Source: Bacteroidia bacterium
GTDB taxonomy: Bacteria; Bacteroidota; Bacteroidia; NS11-12g; UBA9320
Direction: 5' to 3'
Assembly: GCA_020849295.1 (NCBI GenBank)
Contig: JADLGN010000009.1
Coordinates: 51,705 to 115,704, forward strand
DNA: 64,000 nt
The notes under the pieces were generated by a model. That model searched no databases. It was not told where the DNA came from and was given only the letters and a program-made list of their open reading frames with translations. Shown here one piece after another: positions 22,851 through 55,528 of the stretch. The translations under genes were made by a program, and so were the position numbers. The first letter of the stretch is position 1. Each line of letters starts with the position of its first letter.

Positions 22851-23864
22851 TTAATTTTTAATTCTTAATAATGCTTCTTTAGCTAATGAAAAATTTGGAT
22901 TTATTTGAAGACATTGCTGATAATACTGTTTTGCTTTTACTTTATCATTTTTAGCTTCATAAGTTAATCCGAGCATATACACAGGTTTTTCAAAATTATT
23001 ATTTGCTCTTGCGGCAAGTTCAAAATGCCTTATTGCCAAATCCCATTTTTTCAATTCAAAATAAATATATCCGGCATTATAATATGCTTTAGAATTATAT
23101 GGGTTGATAGTGATTGTTTGCTGATAATCTGCCAATGCTTTAGGAAAATTATTTGTCAATTGATAATAATAACCTCTGGAATACCACGATTCATCAATTC
23201 CACTATTTGTATTTATTGCTGCATCAAGATATTTAAGAGCTTCGGGATTTAATTTAATTGAATATAAAATCCCAAGTTGAAGATATGCATTGTAGTCGCC
23301 GGCTTCTGTTTGAATTGCTCGCTTGTAATACAAAATTGCATTTGCTGTATCACCGGTTTCTTTAAGTGTTTGTGCAAAAAGAAAATATGCTTTAGGATAA
23401 CTTTCGTCTTTCTTAATAGCTTCGTTAAGATAAAGTCGTGCTTCTTTATACTTTCTTACAATCAAAAAAAAACTTCCTGCCTTAAAGTATGCTTCGGCAT
23501 TTGGGTTTTTTTCAACAGCTTTTAGATACATATCACGAGCTTTAAAAGTTTGGTTATTCCCAAAATAAGCATCTGCAAGTTTTAAATAATTACTGTTTTT
23601 TTCAGGTTTTAGTTTTATTGCATATTCCAAATCTGAGATAGCAAGTTTAAAATTTTTATCATTATTAATTAACGACAAAGCTCTTTCTGTATAAAATTCA
23701 TCATTACTTGGTTGTTCATATATTTTTTGCGACCAAGCTCTTGTTTCGGCATGAAAAGCAGTATCATGAGCCATTGTATAATTTTTGTTTTTTTTATTAC
23801 AAGAAATTATAAATTGCATGCCCAAAATAAAAACTACTAAAAAAATTAAAACTTTTATTTTCAT
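22851..23864 (-). CDS. tetratricopeptide-repeat lipoprotein
   Basis: Signal peptide/lipobox (IISC) followed by repeated TPR units (AYFKAG..., AYLQLG..., AYYNAG...). Confidence 0.8.
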   Translation of the reverse strand: MKIKVLIFLVVFILGMQFIISCNKKNKNYTMAHDTAFHAETRAWSQKIYEQPSNDEFYTERALSLINNDKNFKLAISDLEYAIKLKPEKNSNYLKLADAYFGNNQTFKARDMYLKAVEKNPNAEAYFKAGSFFLIVRKYKEARLYLNEAIKKDESYPKAYFLFAQTLKETGDTANAILYYKRAIQTEAGDYNAYLQLGILYSIKLNPEALKYLDAAINTNSGIDESWYSRGYYYQLTNNFPKALADYQQTITINPYNSKAYYNAGYIYFELKKWDLAIRHFELAARANNNFEKPVYMLGLTYEAKNDKVKAKQYYQQCLQINPNFSLAKEALLRIKN

Positions 23865-48471: not shown

Positions 48472-49278
48472 ATGTTTAAAAAGTCAATAGCTTTAATTTT
48501 AATCAGTTTAACTTTTCAATCTTTTAAATCATCTGAAAATTTATTTAATAATTTTAAAAATAATACAATTTCAGAAAACTACATTGATATTAAAGCATCG
48601 ATTTTACCTAATGTTTCATTTGCTCTTACCCATGGAGATACTAATGCAATTATAAAACAAGATATTTTCAGCGAAGTAACTCAAAGCAAATTCGACGATT
48701 TTGATTTTAAAAAATGGAATGAAATAAATTTTGAAATTTTTTATCAAGCCTACAAAGGCTACAATGTAATGCTAAATGAAGGTATAATTTCAAATAGTAG
48801 ATATCTTACAATAATTAATTACGAAATATCATCAAACAAAAAAAGGCTTTGGGTGCTTGATATGCAAAAAAATAAAGTGATTATACACGATTTAGTTTCA
48901 CATGGCAAAAATAGTGGAGAAGAATATGCTCATATTTTCTCAAACTCACCCGAGAGTTTTAAAAGCAGCCTTGGATTTTTTGTTACAGGCAAACCATATT
49001 TAGGTAAAAACAATTATTCATTGAAACTGCACGGTGTTGAAGATGGAATTAATGACAATGCTTATGATAGAGGAATAGTAATACATGGGGCAGATTATGT
49101 AAGTACAAAATTTATTCGTTCACATAAGAGATTGGGTCGCAGCCAAGGTTGTCCTGCAGTATCAGAAAAATTAAATCCATGGTTAATCAACACTATTCAG
49201 GGAGGTTCTTGCGTGTTTGTATATTATCCTTCTGAAAAGTATTTTAGAATTTCTCCTATATTAAATTCTGAAATTTAA
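48472..49278 (+). CDS. murein L,D-transpeptidase catalytic-domain family protein (YkuD-like, secreted)
   Basis: Signal peptide and the catalytic His...Cys signature (IHGADYV...LGRSQGCPAVS). Confidence 0.65.
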   Translation: MFKKSIALILISLTFQSFKSSENLFNNFKNNTISENYIDIKASILPNVSFALTHGDTNAIIKQDIFSEVTQSKFDDFDFKKWNEINFEIFYQAYKGYNVMLNEGIISNSRYLTIINYEISSNKKRLWVLDMQKNKVIIHDLVSHGKNSGEEYAHIFSNSPESFKSSLGFFVTGKPYLGKNNYSLKLHGVEDGINDNAYDRGIVIHGADYVSTKFIRSHKRLGRSQGCPAVSEKLNPWLINTIQGGSCVFVYYPSEKYFRISPILNSEI

Positions 49279-49322
49279 AAGAAAATTTTCATAATTAATC
49301 TTTAAGTTTATATTTGCCATGA

Positions 49323-51119
49323 TTGATAAAATCACGACATTCATACCTTATTGTATCTGCAATTTTTATTTTTGCTATAGTTTTTCATTCATGCAAAAAA
49401 TCAAGGAAACTTGAAACTACTATTAATGTTGAGGAACTAATTAAAGGTTTAGACCATTCAAAACTTTCTCAGCTATTGGTATATAAGGCTAAAAACAGCA
49501 ACTATAAACCACCCGGAGTAAAATACACAGAACATGCCGATACACTTAATTACTTTTATATAGAAAATGAAGGCGAACCGGTATGGCTCGGTTTATTAAA
49601 AGATTCTATTTTCAGAATTAAACTTATTGAAATTTTAAATTCTTCAGAAAAGCACGGGCTTAAATCATCATATTATAATACAAAAATCATAGAAAAGTAT
49701 TTGATGAAATTTGATAGTTTGAATGAGATTAGAACAAATGAAGATTATAATTTTTTATCAGACCTTGATTACACAATTTCTTTATCAGTTATAAGTCTTT
49801 ATTCAGACTTGGCGTTGGGACATATTAATCCATATAAATTTTACAAACCAAACTATACTCTTATTTCGTCCAAATCAATTAATTTTAATATTTTTTCGGT
49901 ATTATATCATCCTTTTTCTTTTGGTGACTCAATAGCTATAAAATCTCCTTGCAGTATTAGATATCATACATTACAGTTGATTTATCAAAATTATCTCGAT
50001 TACATTAATAACAATAACATTTTAGATTATGATACTTCTTTAAATGGAAATTCAGAACATAATATAAAAGTAATAGATCAAAGGCTCGATTTGCTATGGA
50101 ACACTTTAAATAAAATAGAGCAAAAACCTTTAGTAAATATAACTGCAAACAGAGAGAAGCTAATTTCAAAAACAAGAATAATGTATGGATTGCCGGCAGG
50201 GAAAACTGACTCAATATTTATTGAAAGATTTTACAAACCAGCCAATGAATTAACAGATGAAATATTAAGCAATCTTGAGCAGGAAAGATGGTTTTCAATA
50301 CCGGACACCGGACAGTTTGTATTAGTAAGGCTTACGCAATACATTGCCGAAATACACACAGACAGTGTAAGACAAATGAAAGTATGTATAGGAAAAAATA
50401 AAGCAATAGATTTCGACGAAAAATATAAGCGATATTTAAAAACTAAAAATTATTTACAAAAGCCCATAAATACTGAAACACCAATAATTCAAGGATATTT
50501 GAGCGAAATAGTTATTAATCCTACTTGGACTGTCCCAAATAGTATTATTGGTAAAGAAATGTATTCAAAAATATTGAGTAATCCTGATTACTTAACCAAC
50601 AAAGGATATGAAGTTTTGTTGAATGGCAAAGTTATTTCGCCACGCAGTTTGAATTGGAATAAATACAGTCCTTATAATGTTCCTGTAAAAATTAGACAAA
50701 AATCAGGAACAACTAATTCTCTAGGAATTTTAAAGTTTAATTTCCCAAATGCTTTTAATATCTATATGCATGATACCCCCGAAAAAAATAAATTTAATAA
50801 TACAAATAGAGCAGTAAGCCATGGTTGTATAAGGCTGCATAAGCCAGTAAAGATGGCTGAAATATTATTGAACATACAGTCAGATTCATCACTTACTGAT
50901 AAACTCAGACTAAAACTTGGACTACAGCCTTATGATACTTCTCTTCATGTAGTTGATTCATTATTAAAACCAATTAAGAACACAGAGTCAATTAAACTAA
51001 AAAAACAAATACCAGTATATTTATATTATCGCACAATAAATGTTGAAAGAAATGGAAATATAAGTTTTAATCATGACATTTATAAGCGAAACAAAGCAAT
51101 TGCAAAAAAATTAAAATAA
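49323..51119 (+). CDS. L,D-transpeptidase (YcbB/YkuD family) with N-terminal peptidoglycan-binding-like region
   Basis: Canonical YkuD active site HDTPE...SHGCIRL near the C-terminus; 598 aa with a membrane anchor or signal. Confidence 0.8.
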   Translation: MIKSRHSYLIVSAIFIFAIVFHSCKKSRKLETTINVEELIKGLDHSKLSQLLVYKAKNSNYKPPGVKYTEHADTLNYFYIENEGEPVWLGLLKDSIFRIKLIEILNSSEKHGLKSSYYNTKIIEKYLMKFDSLNEIRTNEDYNFLSDLDYTISLSVISLYSDLALGHINPYKFYKPNYTLISSKSINFNIFSVLYHPFSFGDSIAIKSPCSIRYHTLQLIYQNYLDYINNNNILDYDTSLNGNSEHNIKVIDQRLDLLWNTLNKIEQKPLVNITANREKLISKTRIMYGLPAGKTDSIFIERFYKPANELTDEILSNLEQERWFSIPDTGQFVLVRLTQYIAEIHTDSVRQMKVCIGKNKAIDFDEKYKRYLKTKNYLQKPINTETPIIQGYLSEIVINPTWTVPNSIIGKEMYSKILSNPDYLTNKGYEVLLNGKVISPRSLNWNKYSPYNVPVKIRQKSGTTNSLGILKFNFPNAFNIYMHDTPEKNKFNNTNRAVSHGCIRLHKPVKMAEILLNIQSDSSLTDKLRLKLGLQPYDTSLHVVDSLLKPIKNTESIKLKKQIPVYLYYRTINVERNGNISFNHDIYKRNKAIAKKLK

Positions 51120-51124
51120 AAAAT

Positions 51125-51150
51125 TACCCTGCACTTTTAGGTACAGGGTA
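51125..51150. terminator. bidirectional stem-loop (TACCCTGcac-ttttag-gtaCAGGGTA) between convergent genes
   Basis: 7-bp GC-containing inverted repeat, extendable to 9 bp with one mismatch, flanked by T-runs when read from the minus strand. Lies between the L,D-transpeptidase and caspase-like gene ends. Confidence 0.5.
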
Positions 51151-51183: not shown

Positions 51184-53193
51184 TTAATCTACAATTTTAA
51201 ATGTAATTGAATATACGTTTGCACTACCTTGTGGAACATTAGGCATAGCAGGACCTCTTGACCCCGAAGATTTAAATGTTTCAGCAAATAAAGCAGAAAA
51301 CGGACTATCGTTTTCGCCTCTGCTTCCAGAGCCTCTAGTACTTATTATACTTGACAAATCCAAGGGTTTTTCGGTAGCAATAATTTTAAAAACTTCATTT
51401 CCTGTTGGTGGATAAAAAACAACTATATCATCATCGCCTAGCTCTTTACTCTCTCCTCTTTTTATAAAATAATCGTTAGCTGTTCTCCCTGTTTCTGCAT
51501 TAGGTACCACTAGATTTATTTTATTGTCAGGTTGAATATCTATTATAGTAAAGTACAAATCTTTTGTACCGTTATTTGTTACTTTAATTTTGAATGCTTC
51601 TCCGGCTTTAATAATTAATACTCCTGACGAATCATATTTTGTTTTTATATCACCTCTTGATTTTTCGACAATTTTATCGCCATTTTCGGTAGTTTCAATC
51701 GGAATGAACTCAAATTTTACATCAAGTTTTGCATCACTCACCTCCAGACCTCTTATATAATTTGCCTGACTGTAATCTTTTATTTTTGAAATTATACTTT
51801 CTGTAGTTACTTCAATATTGCTGTTTACAGTTTCGTCAAGTAGTACATAATCAGAATTTGAAGTGATTTTAATCTGCGACCCCCTGCTGTGCTTATTGCC
51901 TTCATCAATTATCAAATCTGCTCCTTCGTTTACAATAGTAATAAACGGATATTTTTTCAATTCTTCGTTTATAGAGTTTTTCAAGCTAGCATTACTTACC
52001 TCCATTTTAACTTTCAAACTAATTTTACCATAATTTTTTTCAGTTACATATATCCAAGAATTTAATGCTGTATTTTTATCTAAAGGATTATCAAGTGTAA
52101 CTTCGGCATTTGTTAGTCCTGCTGAGGTAATTTTGCCTGTTGCTTTTGGTTTTGCTTTTGAAAAGTCTTTTATGTCTATGTCATAAAACGCAACTTTCGT
52201 ATTAGCATATAATCCAAGTAATTCGCCTCCATTTATAGTTACAGTTTTATCACTTTTCCATTTCTCAACCTTATAATACTCTGTTTTACCATTAATTTTT
52301 CCACCTAAAATTGTATAATCAAGTTGACCTTCTGCCTGTGGAGTTTGACGTGGGGCAAAACCACTCATTTCTACTTTTATTTTGTCAAATATTCCTCTAT
52401 ATGTAGAATTTTTTCCTGCATTTGAAAATACTCTACTGAAGGCATAACTCAACGAACCAACACCGTTATGGTTTTCATCTTCTGTTTCATAATTAAGTTC
52501 ATTTGGGCTTGCTCCGAAAAAACTAACCATAGAAGCCATTTTATCTGTTGAACCTGAATTTGAAACTATTGAATTTTTTTCTCCATTATTATTTCCTTTT
52601 GGCGAATATCCTTCAGGGGCACAAGGTTTATCGCTTCCCCTGTGTTTTTTTATTCCATCTCCTCTGGTACCTGTTCCAGAATGGCAAGCATCAAGTATTA
52701 CCATTACGTTTCCTTTTGCTCCAAGTTTTTTTCTTAACTCATCCATTTTGGCACCAAGCTCTTCATCTCTAAGGTGATTTTCTCCTTCATATATTCCTTT
52801 TTGATAACGCATGTTGGCATTGTATGATACAAGTGCTTCATCATATCCGTCAATTTCATCGCCATTGTTATCAATTACTTGCTGCCCATGTCCTGAATAA
52901 TGAAAAACTGCAATTCCATCTTTGGTTGATTTAGCAATTAGGTGCTCATTTATTGCTTTCAAAATTCCGTCTTTAGTTGCTTGTGCATCTCTAATTACAA
53001 GTATATCTTTTTCAGAAAAGCCTTGTTTAATCAATGCAGCTTTTATTAGTGGCACATCATTTTGAGAACTAATATTTGACCATCCTGTGCTTGGATCATA
53101 GTTGCCTATTGCTACTATGAGTGCTATTTTACTTTGAGCCTGAGCATAAGCCACTATGAGCATAACTCCCATTAAAATCATTAACTTTTTCAT
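51184..53193 (-). CDS. secreted caspase-family (peptidase C14) protein with a ~400-aa C-terminal beta-rich extension
   Basis: Signal peptide (MKKLMILMGVMLIVAYAQAQ), catalytic His (FHYSGHG) and Cys (ILDACHSG) dyad in caspase spacing. The C-terminal domain is unassigned. Confidence 0.8.
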   Translation of the reverse strand: MKKLMILMGVMLIVAYAQAQSKIALIVAIGNYDPSTGWSNISSQNDVPLIKAALIKQGFSEKDILVIRDAQATKDGILKAINEHLIAKSTKDGIAVFHYSGHGQQVIDNNGDEIDGYDEALVSYNANMRYQKGIYEGENHLRDEELGAKMDELRKKLGAKGNVMVILDACHSGTGTRGDGIKKHRGSDKPCAPEGYSPKGNNNGEKNSIVSNSGSTDKMASMVSFFGASPNELNYETEDENHNGVGSLSYAFSRVFSNAGKNSTYRGIFDKIKVEMSGFAPRQTPQAEGQLDYTILGGKINGKTEYYKVEKWKSDKTVTINGGELLGLYANTKVAFYDIDIKDFSKAKPKATGKITSAGLTNAEVTLDNPLDKNTALNSWIYVTEKNYGKISLKVKMEVSNASLKNSINEELKKYPFITIVNEGADLIIDEGNKHSRGSQIKITSNSDYVLLDETVNSNIEVTTESIISKIKDYSQANYIRGLEVSDAKLDVKFEFIPIETTENGDKIVEKSRGDIKTKYDSSGVLIIKAGEAFKIKVTNNGTKDLYFTIIDIQPDNKINLVVPNAETGRTANDYFIKRGESKELGDDDIVVFYPPTGNEVFKIIATEKPLDLSSIISTRGSGSRGENDSPFSALFAETFKSSGSRGPAMPNVPQGSANVYSITFKIVD

Positions 53194-53219
53194 TTTTATT
53201 TTTTTTTTTTTTAAAACTA

Positions 53220-54692
53220 TTAGTAGTAAATAGTTGATTTAAGAACTGAACTATTACCTGATAAATGCTGGCGGTACAACTGAGCTTGTGCAGATGGATT
53301 ACTTGCATCTGTAATATAATAATCAAACACTCCGCTAAGACTGCTATATCTTATTGCAGCACCAAGTTCAGATAATTTTAAAACTTTCCACATATTTGGA
53401 TTGCTTTCGTTATATATTCCACCACATAATACAAAATATGTTTTACCCTTATATTCTCCTCTTTGATTTTTAAATCTCTTTTCGCCCTCTGAATACTGAT
53501 ATTGATTTCCACCTTCACTATAATCAAATGCTACTTGTCCATAAGAAGTATTTAATGAAACTCCTGGTATTTGTGTCAATACATAGGTAGCAATTGTTTC
53601 AAGTTCTGATTGTTTTAGCTCTCCAGCAGTAAAACTTACTGTTTCAGTTGTCCCAGAGGCTGACTTAAGTACAAGCGTAACTTTTGTATTTGGATTTATT
53701 TTTTCAAATTCACCAAGTACCTCTTCTACATTTCTAACTTCTACACCATTAACTTTAGTTACAAAATAACCAATTTTTGAACTTAAAGCACTATATGCAT
53801 TGCTTTCGGGTATAACACCATAAATTTTTGCTGCTTCGTCTTTAATATAATAATTTTGTCCATCAACATCATACGCTTGTGCTACTTCAATACCAAGGTA
53901 AGCACGTTTTACTCTGCCATTATTTGCAAATACATCTTTTATTATTTTTTCGGTAATTTTTGGCTCAAGCGAAAAATTTATTTGCTGTTGCAAAACCTGA
54001 CTACCATCAGGAGCAGTTGCAAATGCTATTTGAGAGTTCACACCCACAACTTCACCTTTTTCATTAATCAATGGTCCGCCACTATTTCCCCAAATAATTG
54101 TTGCTGTGTGTTGCAAAAATCCGAATTTACCCGTAAGACCTCCTCTTGCACGATTTTTTGCACTAATAATACCATCAGTTACTGTATAAGGATATGTGCC
54201 TAATGGATTTCCTATTGCATATACTTTGTCTCCTATTTTTGGCTCAGATTTTGTAAAATCTACATAATCTATTTCTGACCCAGGAGTTGTTACAAATTCA
54301 AGAATTGCAAGATCGTAAAATGAATCTCCGCCTAATACTCTTACTTCATATTTTGTTTGATTGATAGAAAAAACATAAATACTTCCGCTTGAAGTTGATG
54401 CTGATTCTATAACGTGAGCATTTGTTACTACATAATACTTCCCGTTTCTTTTAATAATAAACCCAGAACCGCTTCCTTTTGCATTTGATAAGTCAAGGGC
54501 TTTCCTGTATGCCTCTTCAGAAACTTCACCTCTCATACCAAGAGTCATTTTGCCATAAGGCTCTGTTTGATAAACTGCAACTGTAACTACTGCCGCAAGG
54601 CATTTGTCTAATACTGCTGATGCACTTTGTGCAAATGATGATACTACTAAACTAAGTAGCGCTAATGATGTTAAAATTGTACGTCTCATTTT
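53220..54692 (-). CDS. secreted trypsin-like serine peptidase (S1 family, DegP/HtrA-like protease domain) with C-terminal extension
   Basis: Signal peptide MRRTILTSLALLSLVVSSFAQ, catalytic His (VTNAHV) and Ser (GNSGGPL). Start trimmed from the ORF-track 54779. A 26-bp T-run separates it from the caspase-like gene. Confidence 0.8.
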   Translation of the reverse strand, partial: KMRRTILTSLALLSLVVSSFAQSASAVLDKCLAAVVTVAVYQTEPYGKMTLGMRGEVSEEAYRKALDLSNAKGSGSGFIIKRNGKYYVVTNAHVIESASTSSGSIYVFSINQTKYEVRVLGGDSFYDLAILEFVTTPGSEIDYVDFTKSEPKIGDKVYAIGNPLGTYPYTVTDGIISAKNRARGGLTGKFGFLQHTATIIWGNSGGPLINEKGEVVGVNSQIAFATAPDGSQVLQQQINFSLEPKITEKIIKDVFANNGRVKRAYLGIEVAQAYDVDGQNYYIKDEAAKIYGVIPESNAYSALSSKIGYFVTKVNGVEVRNVEEVLGEFEKINPNTKVTLVLKSASGTTETVSFTAGELKQSELETIATYVLTQIPGVSLNTSYGQVAFDYSEGGNQYQYSEGEKRFKNQRGEYKGKTYFVLCGGIYNESNPNMWKVLKLSELGAAIRYSSLSGVFDYYITDASNPSAQAQLYRQHLSGNSSVLKSTIYY

Positions 54693-54802
54693 TTTGTTTT
54701 TTTTATTTTTTTTAGGTAATACTTTTAAAATATAGAAGGTAAATAATATGACAAAATAAGTATTTTTTTTATTAATCATTTTAAAATTTTACTTAACTAT
54801 AT

Positions 54803-55528
54803 TTGTATGCAAATCAAATGCTAAAATTTTTAACTTCAATATTATTTATATTATTTTCATTTTGTGTATTTTCACAACCGATTGCAAGTTTCGAAAAAAA
54901 ACAAATTGATTTTGGAACAGTAACAGAAGGGACAATATGTAAATATACATTTAAGTTTAGAAATACAGGCAATAAACCATTAATTATTTACAAAGTTGAT
55001 GTTACATGTGGATGCACAACTCCAAGGTGGTCATCTCCTATAAAACCTGGCGATACATCTTCTGTTTACGTTGAACTTAATACAAGTTTTAAAACCGGTT
55101 ATTTGGCAAAAGGAGTAAATCTTACTGTAAATGCTGATGACCCTGAAGTAAACTTAGTATTAATAGCCAATGTTGTTCCTGACACTAATTTTAAAACTAA
55201 AATTGATTCTGTTACTTATTTCCCTATAAAAACAATATGCTACAAATCTTTATGTCAAATTGAAATTTCATTAAATAATCTACATAAGAAAAAATTTAAA
55301 GGCGATGTTGAAAATGCAGAAAATCTTGTTAAATATATTTTAAGAAAACAAAATTACCAAGTGCTTAGTAATATTTGGTATAGTTCAAATTCTGATTTTG
55401 TACAGATAAATACAACAAATGAAGATTATAACTTAATTTTAGCAAAAACGCTTTACAAAGAACTTAAATCTAAATGCAGAATAAAACGATTACAGAAAAA
55501 AATGAAAAGAACTAAATGGTCGAATTAA
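54803..55528 (+). CDS. DUF1573-domain protein (secreted, Bacteroidota-specific Ig-like domain)
   Basis: Signal peptide plus the DUF1573 signature (IDFGTVTEGT...YKVDVTCGCTTP). Confidence 0.7.
   Translation: MYANQMLKFLTSILFILFSFCVFSQPIASFEKKQIDFGTVTEGTICKYTFKFRNTGNKPLIIYKVDVTCGCTTPRWSSPIKPGDTSSVYVELNTSFKTGYLAKGVNLTVNADDPEVNLVLIANVVPDTNFKTKIDSVTYFPIKTICYKSLCQIEISLNNLHKKKFKGDVENAENLVKYILRKQNYQVLSNIWYSSNSDFVQINTTNEDYNLILAKTLYKELKSKCRIKRLQKKMKRTKWSN

Follow-up and report, generated by a model that had tools for sequence, protein, structure and literature searches.

Do two exported proteases encoded side by side in a member of the Bacteroidota stand together by accident, or do they work together? 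The question is raised by a 64,000-nt stretch of DNA from Bacteroidia bacterium (assembly GCA_020849295.1, contig JADLGN010000009.1, positions 51,705–115,704; hereafter the window, within which all coordinates below are counted), whose minus strand encodes an HtrA-type serine protease directly followed by a caspase-like cysteine protease of family C14, both with only generic GenBank annotation ('S1C serine protease' and 'caspase family protein'). What we observe is the structure of the two genes, their domain content, intact catalytic residues, export signals (by inspection) and a conserved, reciprocal linkage of the two families; what we propose, giving it an even chance, is that the genes specify a co-transcribed and functionally coupled pair of periplasmic proteases, which would act serially on shared targets and form one unit across much of the Bacteroidota.

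The linkage was assessed from both sides. The caspase-side scan took one genome per species and the best 80 loci, and in 19 of these the next gene upstream, in the same orientation, encodes a full-length HtrA orthologue (residues 1–489, 45–90 % identity); the paired loci include those of Cesiribacter andamanensis, Cyclobacterium plantarum, several metagenome-assembled genomes (MAGs) of Bacteroidales and one MAG of Flavobacteriales. The five or six nearest relatives (L001–L005 in our numbering of loci) have the pair intact, with flanking genes that differ on both sides. The HtrA-side scan, made in metagenomes, gave 80 loci, 37 of them evaluable, i.e. with a full-length member of the HtrA subfamily and enough downstream sequence. 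This particular caspase follows HtrA immediately in 21 of the 37 and is found somewhere in the locus in 28, and some caspase- or CHAT-type protease is present in 35, whereas none of the 11 generic HtrA matches at the bottom of the list (L152–L162) has a neighbour of this kind. Even a distant member of the subfamily (P0229) is encoded between a gene for a 575-aa C14 protein, a CHASE2 gene and two genes for C14 proteins with tetratricopeptide repeats (TPR).

Adjacency was found in 41 loci (39 of them non-identical) from several clades, with approximate gaps of 11–187 bp; conservation of the pair in related genomes was one of the checks proposed in a preliminary description of the locus. Adjacency spans several caspase clades whose mutual identity is no more than about 40–45 %, and the pairwise identities of the two proteins are correlated across the 41 pairs (r = 0.93 overall, Mantel p = 0.001; r = 0.47 for pairs with less than 55 % caspase identity). 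The relationship is asymmetric, in that the HtrA subfamily is almost never without a caspase-type neighbour and the caspase is often without HtrA. The same description had named, as signs of a coincidental pairing, orthologues that are never adjacent together with C-terminal extensions matching T9SS (type IX secretion system) or carbohydrate-binding domains; we find orthologues that are often adjacent, and extensions with no T9SS or carbohydrate-binding signature. Judged by these sequence comparisons, the pairing is not coincidental.

The upstream gene (53220..54689, minus strand, as are all features of the two genes given below; MCC6721032.1) encodes a protein of 489 aa, characterized from its open reading frame (ORF), Pfam, NCBIfam, structure matches and a family alignment. 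It had been described as an S1 protease with an extension of about 250 aa; the protease stands, and is more exactly of the HtrA/S1C type, the extension being made up of PDZ1 and a PDZ-like domain. Pfam reports Trypsin_2 (E = 5.7e-29) as well as Trypsin, and the Do/HtrA model TIGR02037 of NCBIfam covers both protease and PDZ (E = 2.7e-52; residues 52–396 of a 519-aa form of the protein, see below). The score for TIGR02037 is 178 bits, where the curated cut-off stands at 416, and the DegP, DegQ and DegS equivalogs are all far under their cut-offs; the protein is therefore a member of the HtrA family that belongs to a separate subfamily and is not DegP, DegQ or DegS proper. The nearest solved structures are those of DegP-like, DegS and DegQ proteins (E ~1e-28), with alignments that extend through PDZ1.

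The chymotrypsin-fold protease domain, delimited by Trypsin_2 (residues ~74–217; 54039..54470), carries the triad H92/D126/S203, and the motifs VTNAHV and GNSGGPL cited for its His and Ser are both present. It is followed by PDZ1 (residues ~262–360; 53610..53906), which has a carboxylate-binding-type YLGI loop and is delimited by alignment to DegP-like 5y28, DegS and DegQ and by the coverage of TIGR02037, and then by a divergent second PDZ-like domain (residues 371–489; 53223..53579), which is unrecognizable from sequence and ends in a conserved ...LWY/IYY C-terminus. The C-terminal PDZ region that marks HtrA/S1C proteases is thus represented by PDZ1 and the PDZ-like second domain. In an alignment of 28 sequences of the HtrA family, H92, D126, S203, Q21 and the last residue, Y489, are invariant, as is a segment LGxRGE...AY, which, by our reading of the alignment, occupies the position of the DegP LA loop. 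On this evidence the serine protease is an HtrA/S1C enzyme of the DegP/DegQ type with two PDZ-type domains.

The downstream gene (51184..53193; MCC6721031.1, labelled 'caspase family protein' of a Bacteroidia bacterium MAG) encodes a 669-aa metacaspase-like C14 protein with a C-terminal DUF4384 module, as assigned from the ORF, Pfam and a profile. Peptidase_C14 of Pfam matches residues 22–288 (E = 4e-21), and this region (52330..53130), delimited also by invariant columns and the family profile, comprises p20, a linker and a p10-like part. The profile, built from 24 members of the family, aligns to residues 54–335 of Yca1 and 119–377 of CaMca1 over p20, linker and p10 (E ~1e-17), an alignment that takes in the ND motif, HYSGHG, the acidic cluster DxxDExDGxDE, DxCHSG and the p10 motifs (SGSKDNQTSAD, GAMSHAF and QKPQ opposite fgasxxelNyEt, GSLSYAF and RQTPQ). 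The His-Cys dyad claimed previously is upheld: its motifs HYSGHG and DACHSG are present, and H102 and C170 are invariant in the 24 sequences and aligned to HYSGHG and DSCHSG of Yca1. Equally invariant are D46 (ND motif), D168 (DxC), D108/E113/D115/D118/E119 (acidic cluster), and R177–G178 and R185–G186, which flank a p20–p10 linker of variable length (~180–218). We take the ND motif, DxC and the acidic cluster to correspond to the pocket for basic residues and the Ca2+-binding site in published metacaspase structures, by which the features of this caspase would presumably point to Arg/Lys specificity, Ca2+ responsiveness and autoprocessing in the linker. A p10-like region sets metacaspases apart from p20-only orthocaspases, and by its motifs the protein described as 'caspase-like' is more precisely classed as metacaspase-like (p20 + p10).

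The remainder of the protein had been described as about 400 aa of unassigned beta-rich sequence, and it is the word 'unassigned' that does not hold, because part of it is DUF4384 (PF14326; residues 529–610, E = 1.3e-8, 35.2 bits, cut-off 27), a domain that is precomputed in most homologues of the caspase. Residues 296–669 were modelled by AlphaFold2 from 104 sequences with a predicted local distance difference test score (pLDDT) of 91 and a predicted template modelling score of 0.85. The model contains a beta-barrel domain (residues 296–400; 51994..52308), an alpha/beta domain (residues 402–482; 51748..51990), for which no specific fold match was found, and the Ig/macroglobulin-like beta-sandwich of DUF4384 (residues 492–669; 51187..51720), the last being backed by Pfam and by generic sandwich matches as well. 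Within the sandwich, the pLDDT dips to 65–76 in a loop (~615–655) that bears conserved TRG...NPFxxLF...(T/S)RG motifs, with R646 invariant; this loop is probably disordered. An exhaustive search with the 374-residue tail returned 943 representative clusters (at 50 % identity). The best 150 matches, barring shorter and probably truncated entries, are proteins of ~640–720 aa in which the tail starts at about residue 300, so the tail is found there on caspases of the same layout and the C-terminal module as a whole therefore belongs to one caspase family.

Both proteins had been said to have cleavable signal peptides, and inspection supports this. The predicted signal peptides, MKKLMILMGVMLIVAYAQA and MRRTILTSLALLSLVVSSFA, each with Q as the next residue, both fit the pattern of a basic n-region, a hydrophobic core and small residues at -3/-1; that of HtrA takes up residues 1–20, ending SFA before Q21 (54630..54689), and that of the caspase residues 1–19, ending AQA before Q20 (53137..53193). 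Homologues of the caspase and of HtrA have an equivalent signal peptide or a lipobox-like N-terminus. Each mature protein is thus predicted to begin with Gln (positions ~53134 and ~54629), and Gln at +1 fits the 'Q-rule' of the Bacteroidota (pyroglutamate; signal peptidase I substrates). A lipobox is absent from both window proteins, and no T9SS C-terminal sorting domain (TIGR04183 or TIGR04131 type) was matched in NCBIfam at E <= 0.01 in either; the periplasm is therefore the default location. Of the two destinations put forward before, periplasm and cell surface, the first is retained as this default, and export of either protease to the cell surface is not supported by the sequences. HtrA, with its predicted cleavable signal peptide, appears to be a soluble protein that is not membrane-anchored.

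Both genes lie on the minus strand, as reported before, and are separated by a 26-nt spacer (53194..53219), A-rich on the coding strand and hence T-rich on the plus strand. The idea that they form one transcription unit is supported, because a consensus scan found no terminator-like site in this gap and a hairpin follows only the second gene; on these signals the HtrA and caspase genes look like a single unit. The hairpin (51125..51150; 10-bp stem with 5 GC, then a T-run) lies 34 nt past the stop codon of the caspase gene, between convergent genes; with its flanking T/A runs in the 64-bp gap between the YkuD gene (see below) and the caspase gene, it may be a bidirectional terminator. The longest form of the HtrA ORF (53220..54779), used by some database entries (P0244, P0245), has 519 aa, gaining 30 codons through an upstream ATG. 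We favour the ATG at 54689 (MRRTIL..., 489 aa; 3 nt from the start at 54692 in the preliminary description), because all aligned homologues and the deposited MCC6721032.1 start there. The presumed promoter region of the two-gene unit is the divergent intergenic region 5' of the HtrA gene (54690..54802), and the exact -7 motif of the Bacteroidota, TAnnTTTG, is absent from the minus strand between 53100 and 54900. The GC content, ~0.30–0.33, is unremarkable.

The genes on either side do not belong to the conserved unit. The divergent DUF1573 gene mentioned before is indeed present (54803..55528; Pfam E = 4e-25) and was rejected as a member of the module, accompanying the pair only in the nearest relative, L001. 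Convergent on the caspase gene are two L,D-transpeptidase genes (48472..51119, plus strand), the first for a YkuD_2 protein of 268 aa and the second for a 598-aa Scaffold+YkuD protein that NF007891, a model of the YcbB type, matches in part. These too were rejected, being common, among the relatives, to L005 only; since the arrangement recurs in L005 it represents synteny by descent, outside the module.

In relatives the pair, or the caspase without HtrA, belongs to larger clusters. When the neighbouring ORFs of all loci were clustered, three recurrent layouts emerged: in Bacteroidales and Cytophagales, c7, a TPR protein, HtrA, the caspase, a stand-alone CHASE2 membrane protein and c13 or c11; in Chitinophagaceae, without HtrA, the caspase, c7, CHASE2 and c11; and in Saprospiraceae/Lewinellaceae, the caspase and then c5, often with caspase-TPR paralogues near by and a divergent group of an extracytoplasmic function (ECF) sigma factor, a TPR anti-sigma-like protein and c9 upstream. 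TPR-CHAT and WD40-caspase genes are frequent neighbours. The c7 protein (~137 aa) is secreted and has two conserved Cys residues, CHASE2 has ~398 aa, and c13 (~304 aa) and c11 (~264 aa) are secreted; CHASE2 with c13 or c11 and c7 was seen at L007, L029, L030, L044, L048, L052, L058, L065, L070, L075 and others. The c5 protein (~527 aa) is rich in Gly in its middle part and conserved in its C-terminal region, and its gene always comes directly after that of the caspase in loci of the Saprospiraceae/Lewinellaceae type (L021, L024, L026, L031, L034, L036, L038, L042, L045, L046, L054, L059, L060, L064, L068, L069, L071, L073, L074 and L078). Neither Pfam nor NCBIfam has a family for c7, c13, c11 or c5; c11 has a weak match to the LapA retention module (E = 0.0016). 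One of the c5-type loci (L042; JAKLJF010000367.1, a 5.5-kb contig) is binned as a MAG of the Thermoanaerobaculia (Acidobacteriota), so that either the caspase family extends beyond the Bacteroidota or the contig is mis-binned.

The clade of the window keeps only the bare two-gene core. All members of 12 neighbour clusters (c7, TPR, CHASE2, c11, c13, c5, caspase-TPR, CHAT, ECF sigma, anti-sigma, c9 and WD40-caspase) were compared with the 64-kb window by tblastn, which returned the caspase itself and generic TPR similarity only. The latter concerns a 337-aa ORF (22851..23864, minus strand) with ~25 % identity to the TPR parts of the relatives' caspase-TPR and small TPR proteins (~22.9–23.7 kb); the likeness is probably that of TPR in general, and a long distance separates this ORF from the two protease genes. 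ECF sigma and anti-sigma genes were found only beside caspase loci that lack HtrA, and there are none in the window.

How, then, might the two proteases work together? We suggest that the metacaspase is the core enzyme and HtrA its dedicated, specialized accessory. By analogy with characterized metacaspases, the metacaspase would be Ca2+-responsive and specific for Arg/Lys, as expected because of its p20/p10 fold, His-Cys dyad and conserved acidic cluster. It may be made as a zymogen and be cut at conserved Arg-Gly sites in the p20–p10 linker and in the disordered loop of DUF4384. The two PDZ-type domains of HtrA would read C-termini, newly exposed ones included, or exposed loops, and HtrA would mature, restrain or clear the caspase or its cleavage products, the two enzymes acting in series on the same envelope target or targets. 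Because relatives link the module to c7, TPR, CHASE2 and ECF sigma/anti-sigma proteins, the output there is suggested to be regulated proteolysis or envelope signalling, not bulk digestion. A more elaborate form of this proposal, which we put forward tentatively and consider rather doubtful, is that the pair is the minimal core of an undescribed extracytoplasmic 'caspase cascade', in which a periplasmic, Ca2+-dependent, Arg-specific metacaspase and a dedicated HtrA with two PDZ domains would activate or inactivate each other by cleavage and relay an envelope signal. Candidate sites would be the Arg-Gly motifs of the caspase linker and DUF4384 loop and LGxRGE in the LA-loop region of HtrA, and in other lineages the signal could be received or relayed by stand-alone CHASE2 proteins, c7 and ECF sigma/anti-sigma pairs.

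Several points weigh against a coupled pair. The loci compared are not phylogenetically independent, and the caspase has no adjacent HtrA in 61 of the 80 loci from genomes, among them entire clades of Saprospiraceae and Chitinophagaceae, so that HtrA is not obligatory for it. The sensor and regulator genes that hint at signalling are absent from the 64-kb window, the search for a promoter gave sigma-70-like matches no higher than the shuffled expectation, and the signal peptides were judged by eye. That either protease acts on the other is something we infer; the Arg-Gly 'processing sites' are proposed from sequence conservation, and such sites do not fit the usual preference of HtrA proteases for cleavage after small aliphatic residues.

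The main rival to the coupled pair is plain envelope proteostasis, with HtrA as an ordinary quality-control protease or chaperone, the metacaspase as an unrelated periplasmic peptidase for nutrient peptides or turnover, and an operon shared for the sake of the envelope, with no cascade or signalling. We hold this to be unlikely, though by no means negligible. The serine protease is indeed laid out like a classical DegP or DegQ, with good alignments to the structures of DegP, DegQ and DegS, no regulator stands beside the pair in the window, and the caspase often occurs without HtrA; yet the HtrA subfamily is distinct (178 against 416 bits for TIGR02037), and it has caspase/CHAT proteases beside it in 35 of 37 loci, unlike generic HtrAs. 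The neighbouring YkuD L,D-transpeptidases, cell-wall enzymes that would suit a housekeeping role, are common to close relatives only, and the CHASE2 proteins, ECF sigma/anti-sigma pairs and further caspases found in relatives would be atypical company for housekeeping enzymes. Another rival is that two unrelated exported proteases stand side by side by chance or for reasons of history alone, considering that Bacteroidota encode many secreted proteases and that the close relatives L001 and L005 are syntenic by descent. This we find scarcely credible, given that adjacency recurs in caspase clades only ~40–45 % identical, that the linkage holds from the HtrA side as well, that the pair survives complete turnover of the flanking genes and that the divergences of the two proteins are correlated.

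Two further explanations look to known systems. Caspases and trypsin-like peptidases recur in predicted conflict systems, and the pair could belong to an anti-phage or conflict system built on a caspase effector, like those with EACC1 or EACC2, or on a toxin that a protease activates, the peptidases being activators or effectors; multi-caspase clusters in relatives and weak domain-level matches in PADLOC ('caspase', E = 2.8e-10; RT-Protease_XI; LmuA protease domains) point in this direction. The PADLOC matches are, however, limited to generic catalytic domains, none being full-length, and the model for the EACC1-associated caspase (NF047832) gives 25 bits against a cut-off of 140 and covers residues 24–105 only. 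Moreover, no NTPase, effector-associated, toxin or EACC-like domain is encoded beside the pair, and the signal peptides of both proteins imply action outside the cytoplasm. On the strength of the catalytic-domain-only matches, the EACC1 score far under its cut-off and the signal peptides, we rejected the defence-system reading as improbable. We also consider it very improbable that these are digestive or virulence proteases exported by the T9SS, with the beta-rich tail as a carbohydrate- or surface-binding anchor. Clan CD cysteine proteases are T9SS-linked in Bacteroidota, as exemplified by gingipains and PorU, but in neither protein was a C-terminal-domain family of type A or B matched (NCBIfam, E <= 0.01), the tail occurs only in this caspase family among the best 150 matches, and the C-termini consist of DUF4384 and a PDZ-like fold.

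Compared with what has been described, each gene of the pair has familiar parts in an unfamiliar setting. The nearest enzymes to the caspase are those of MEROPS C14B, namely the type I metacaspases (Yca1 of yeast, Mca1 of Candida, MCA2 of T. brucei) and bacterial orthocaspases such as Microcystis MaOC1. It has in common with them the caspase-haemoglobinase fold, the His-Cys dyad, the p20/linker/p10 alignment, the ND motif, the DxxDExDGxDE cluster and a variable p20–p10 linker with conserved Arg, as at known autoprocessing sites. It differs from them in having a signal peptide in place of a prodomain, and so in being extracytoplasmic, in a C-terminal module of ~375 residues (beta-barrel, alpha/beta domain and DUF4384) and in its genetic linkage to an HtrA protease. 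DUF4384 (PF14326) is here the last of three C-terminal domains and has the conserved, probably disordered Arg-Gly loop. The window HtrA shares with DegP, DegQ and DegS the signal peptide, the His-Asp-Ser chymotrypsin fold and the YLGI-type loop of PDZ1, and with DegP and DegQ the second PDZ-type domain, but it has a conserved LA-loop segment of its own (LGxRGE..AY) and ends in an invariant aromatic residue, and genes of its subfamily are nearly always found next to those for caspase/CHAT proteases. A functional analogy to site-1 proteolysis of RseA by DegS in the sigma-E response is possible, although the window HtrA, unlike the membrane-anchored, single-PDZ DegS, is soluble and has two PDZ-type domains, and no anti-sigma gene is adjacent in HtrA loci.

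A survey of prokaryotic metacaspases noted N-terminal helices that are possibly signal peptides, operons with other proteases, conserved metacaspase–sigma-70 operons and one metacaspase–CHASE2 fusion (Asplund-Samuelsson 2012, PMC3501461). Another study predicts conflict systems of EACC2-caspase proteins, whose tails are variable (CHASE2, PDZ or trypsin-like) and whose neighbours include ECF and TPR proteins (Kaur 2021, PMC8195603). The caspase of the relatives likewise occurs with CHASE2, TPR, ECF sigma/anti-sigma, caspase-TPR and TPR-CHAT proteins; the published clusters (PMC3501461, PMC8195603), however, have a caspase predicted to face the cytoplasm and effector-associated adaptors, whereas the two proteases described here are both secreted, and CHASE2 is a stand-alone membrane protein. 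In the literature, of which our coverage was incomplete, we found general surveys only and no account of a dedicated HtrA paired with a secreted metacaspase of the C14-DUF4384 type, an absence that is weak evidence. The HtrA–metacaspase linkage and the extended cluster thus appear to be undescribed, each gene being a new member of a known family.

If the pair should serve ordinary envelope proteostasis, the value of these analyses would be one of annotation only: the label 'S1C serine protease' would give way to DegQ-like, caspase-associated HtrA, and 'caspase family protein' to secreted metacaspase with DUF4384 module. Bacterial metacaspases are widespread, yet to our knowledge a substrate or role has been established for hardly any of them; discussion of them mostly assumes cytoplasmic functions of the cell-death type. 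The family considered here provides a contrast, being large (943 clusters), exported, intact in its catalytic residues and, in many lineages, tied genetically to a specialized HtrA and further to CHASE2, TPR and ECF sigma genes. The pair may therefore offer a testable two-enzyme system for a periplasmic role of metacaspases, with Cesiribacter andamanensis and Cyclobacterium spp. as cultured carriers, and such a system would for the first time place DUF4384 and stand-alone CHASE2 proteins in a functional context.

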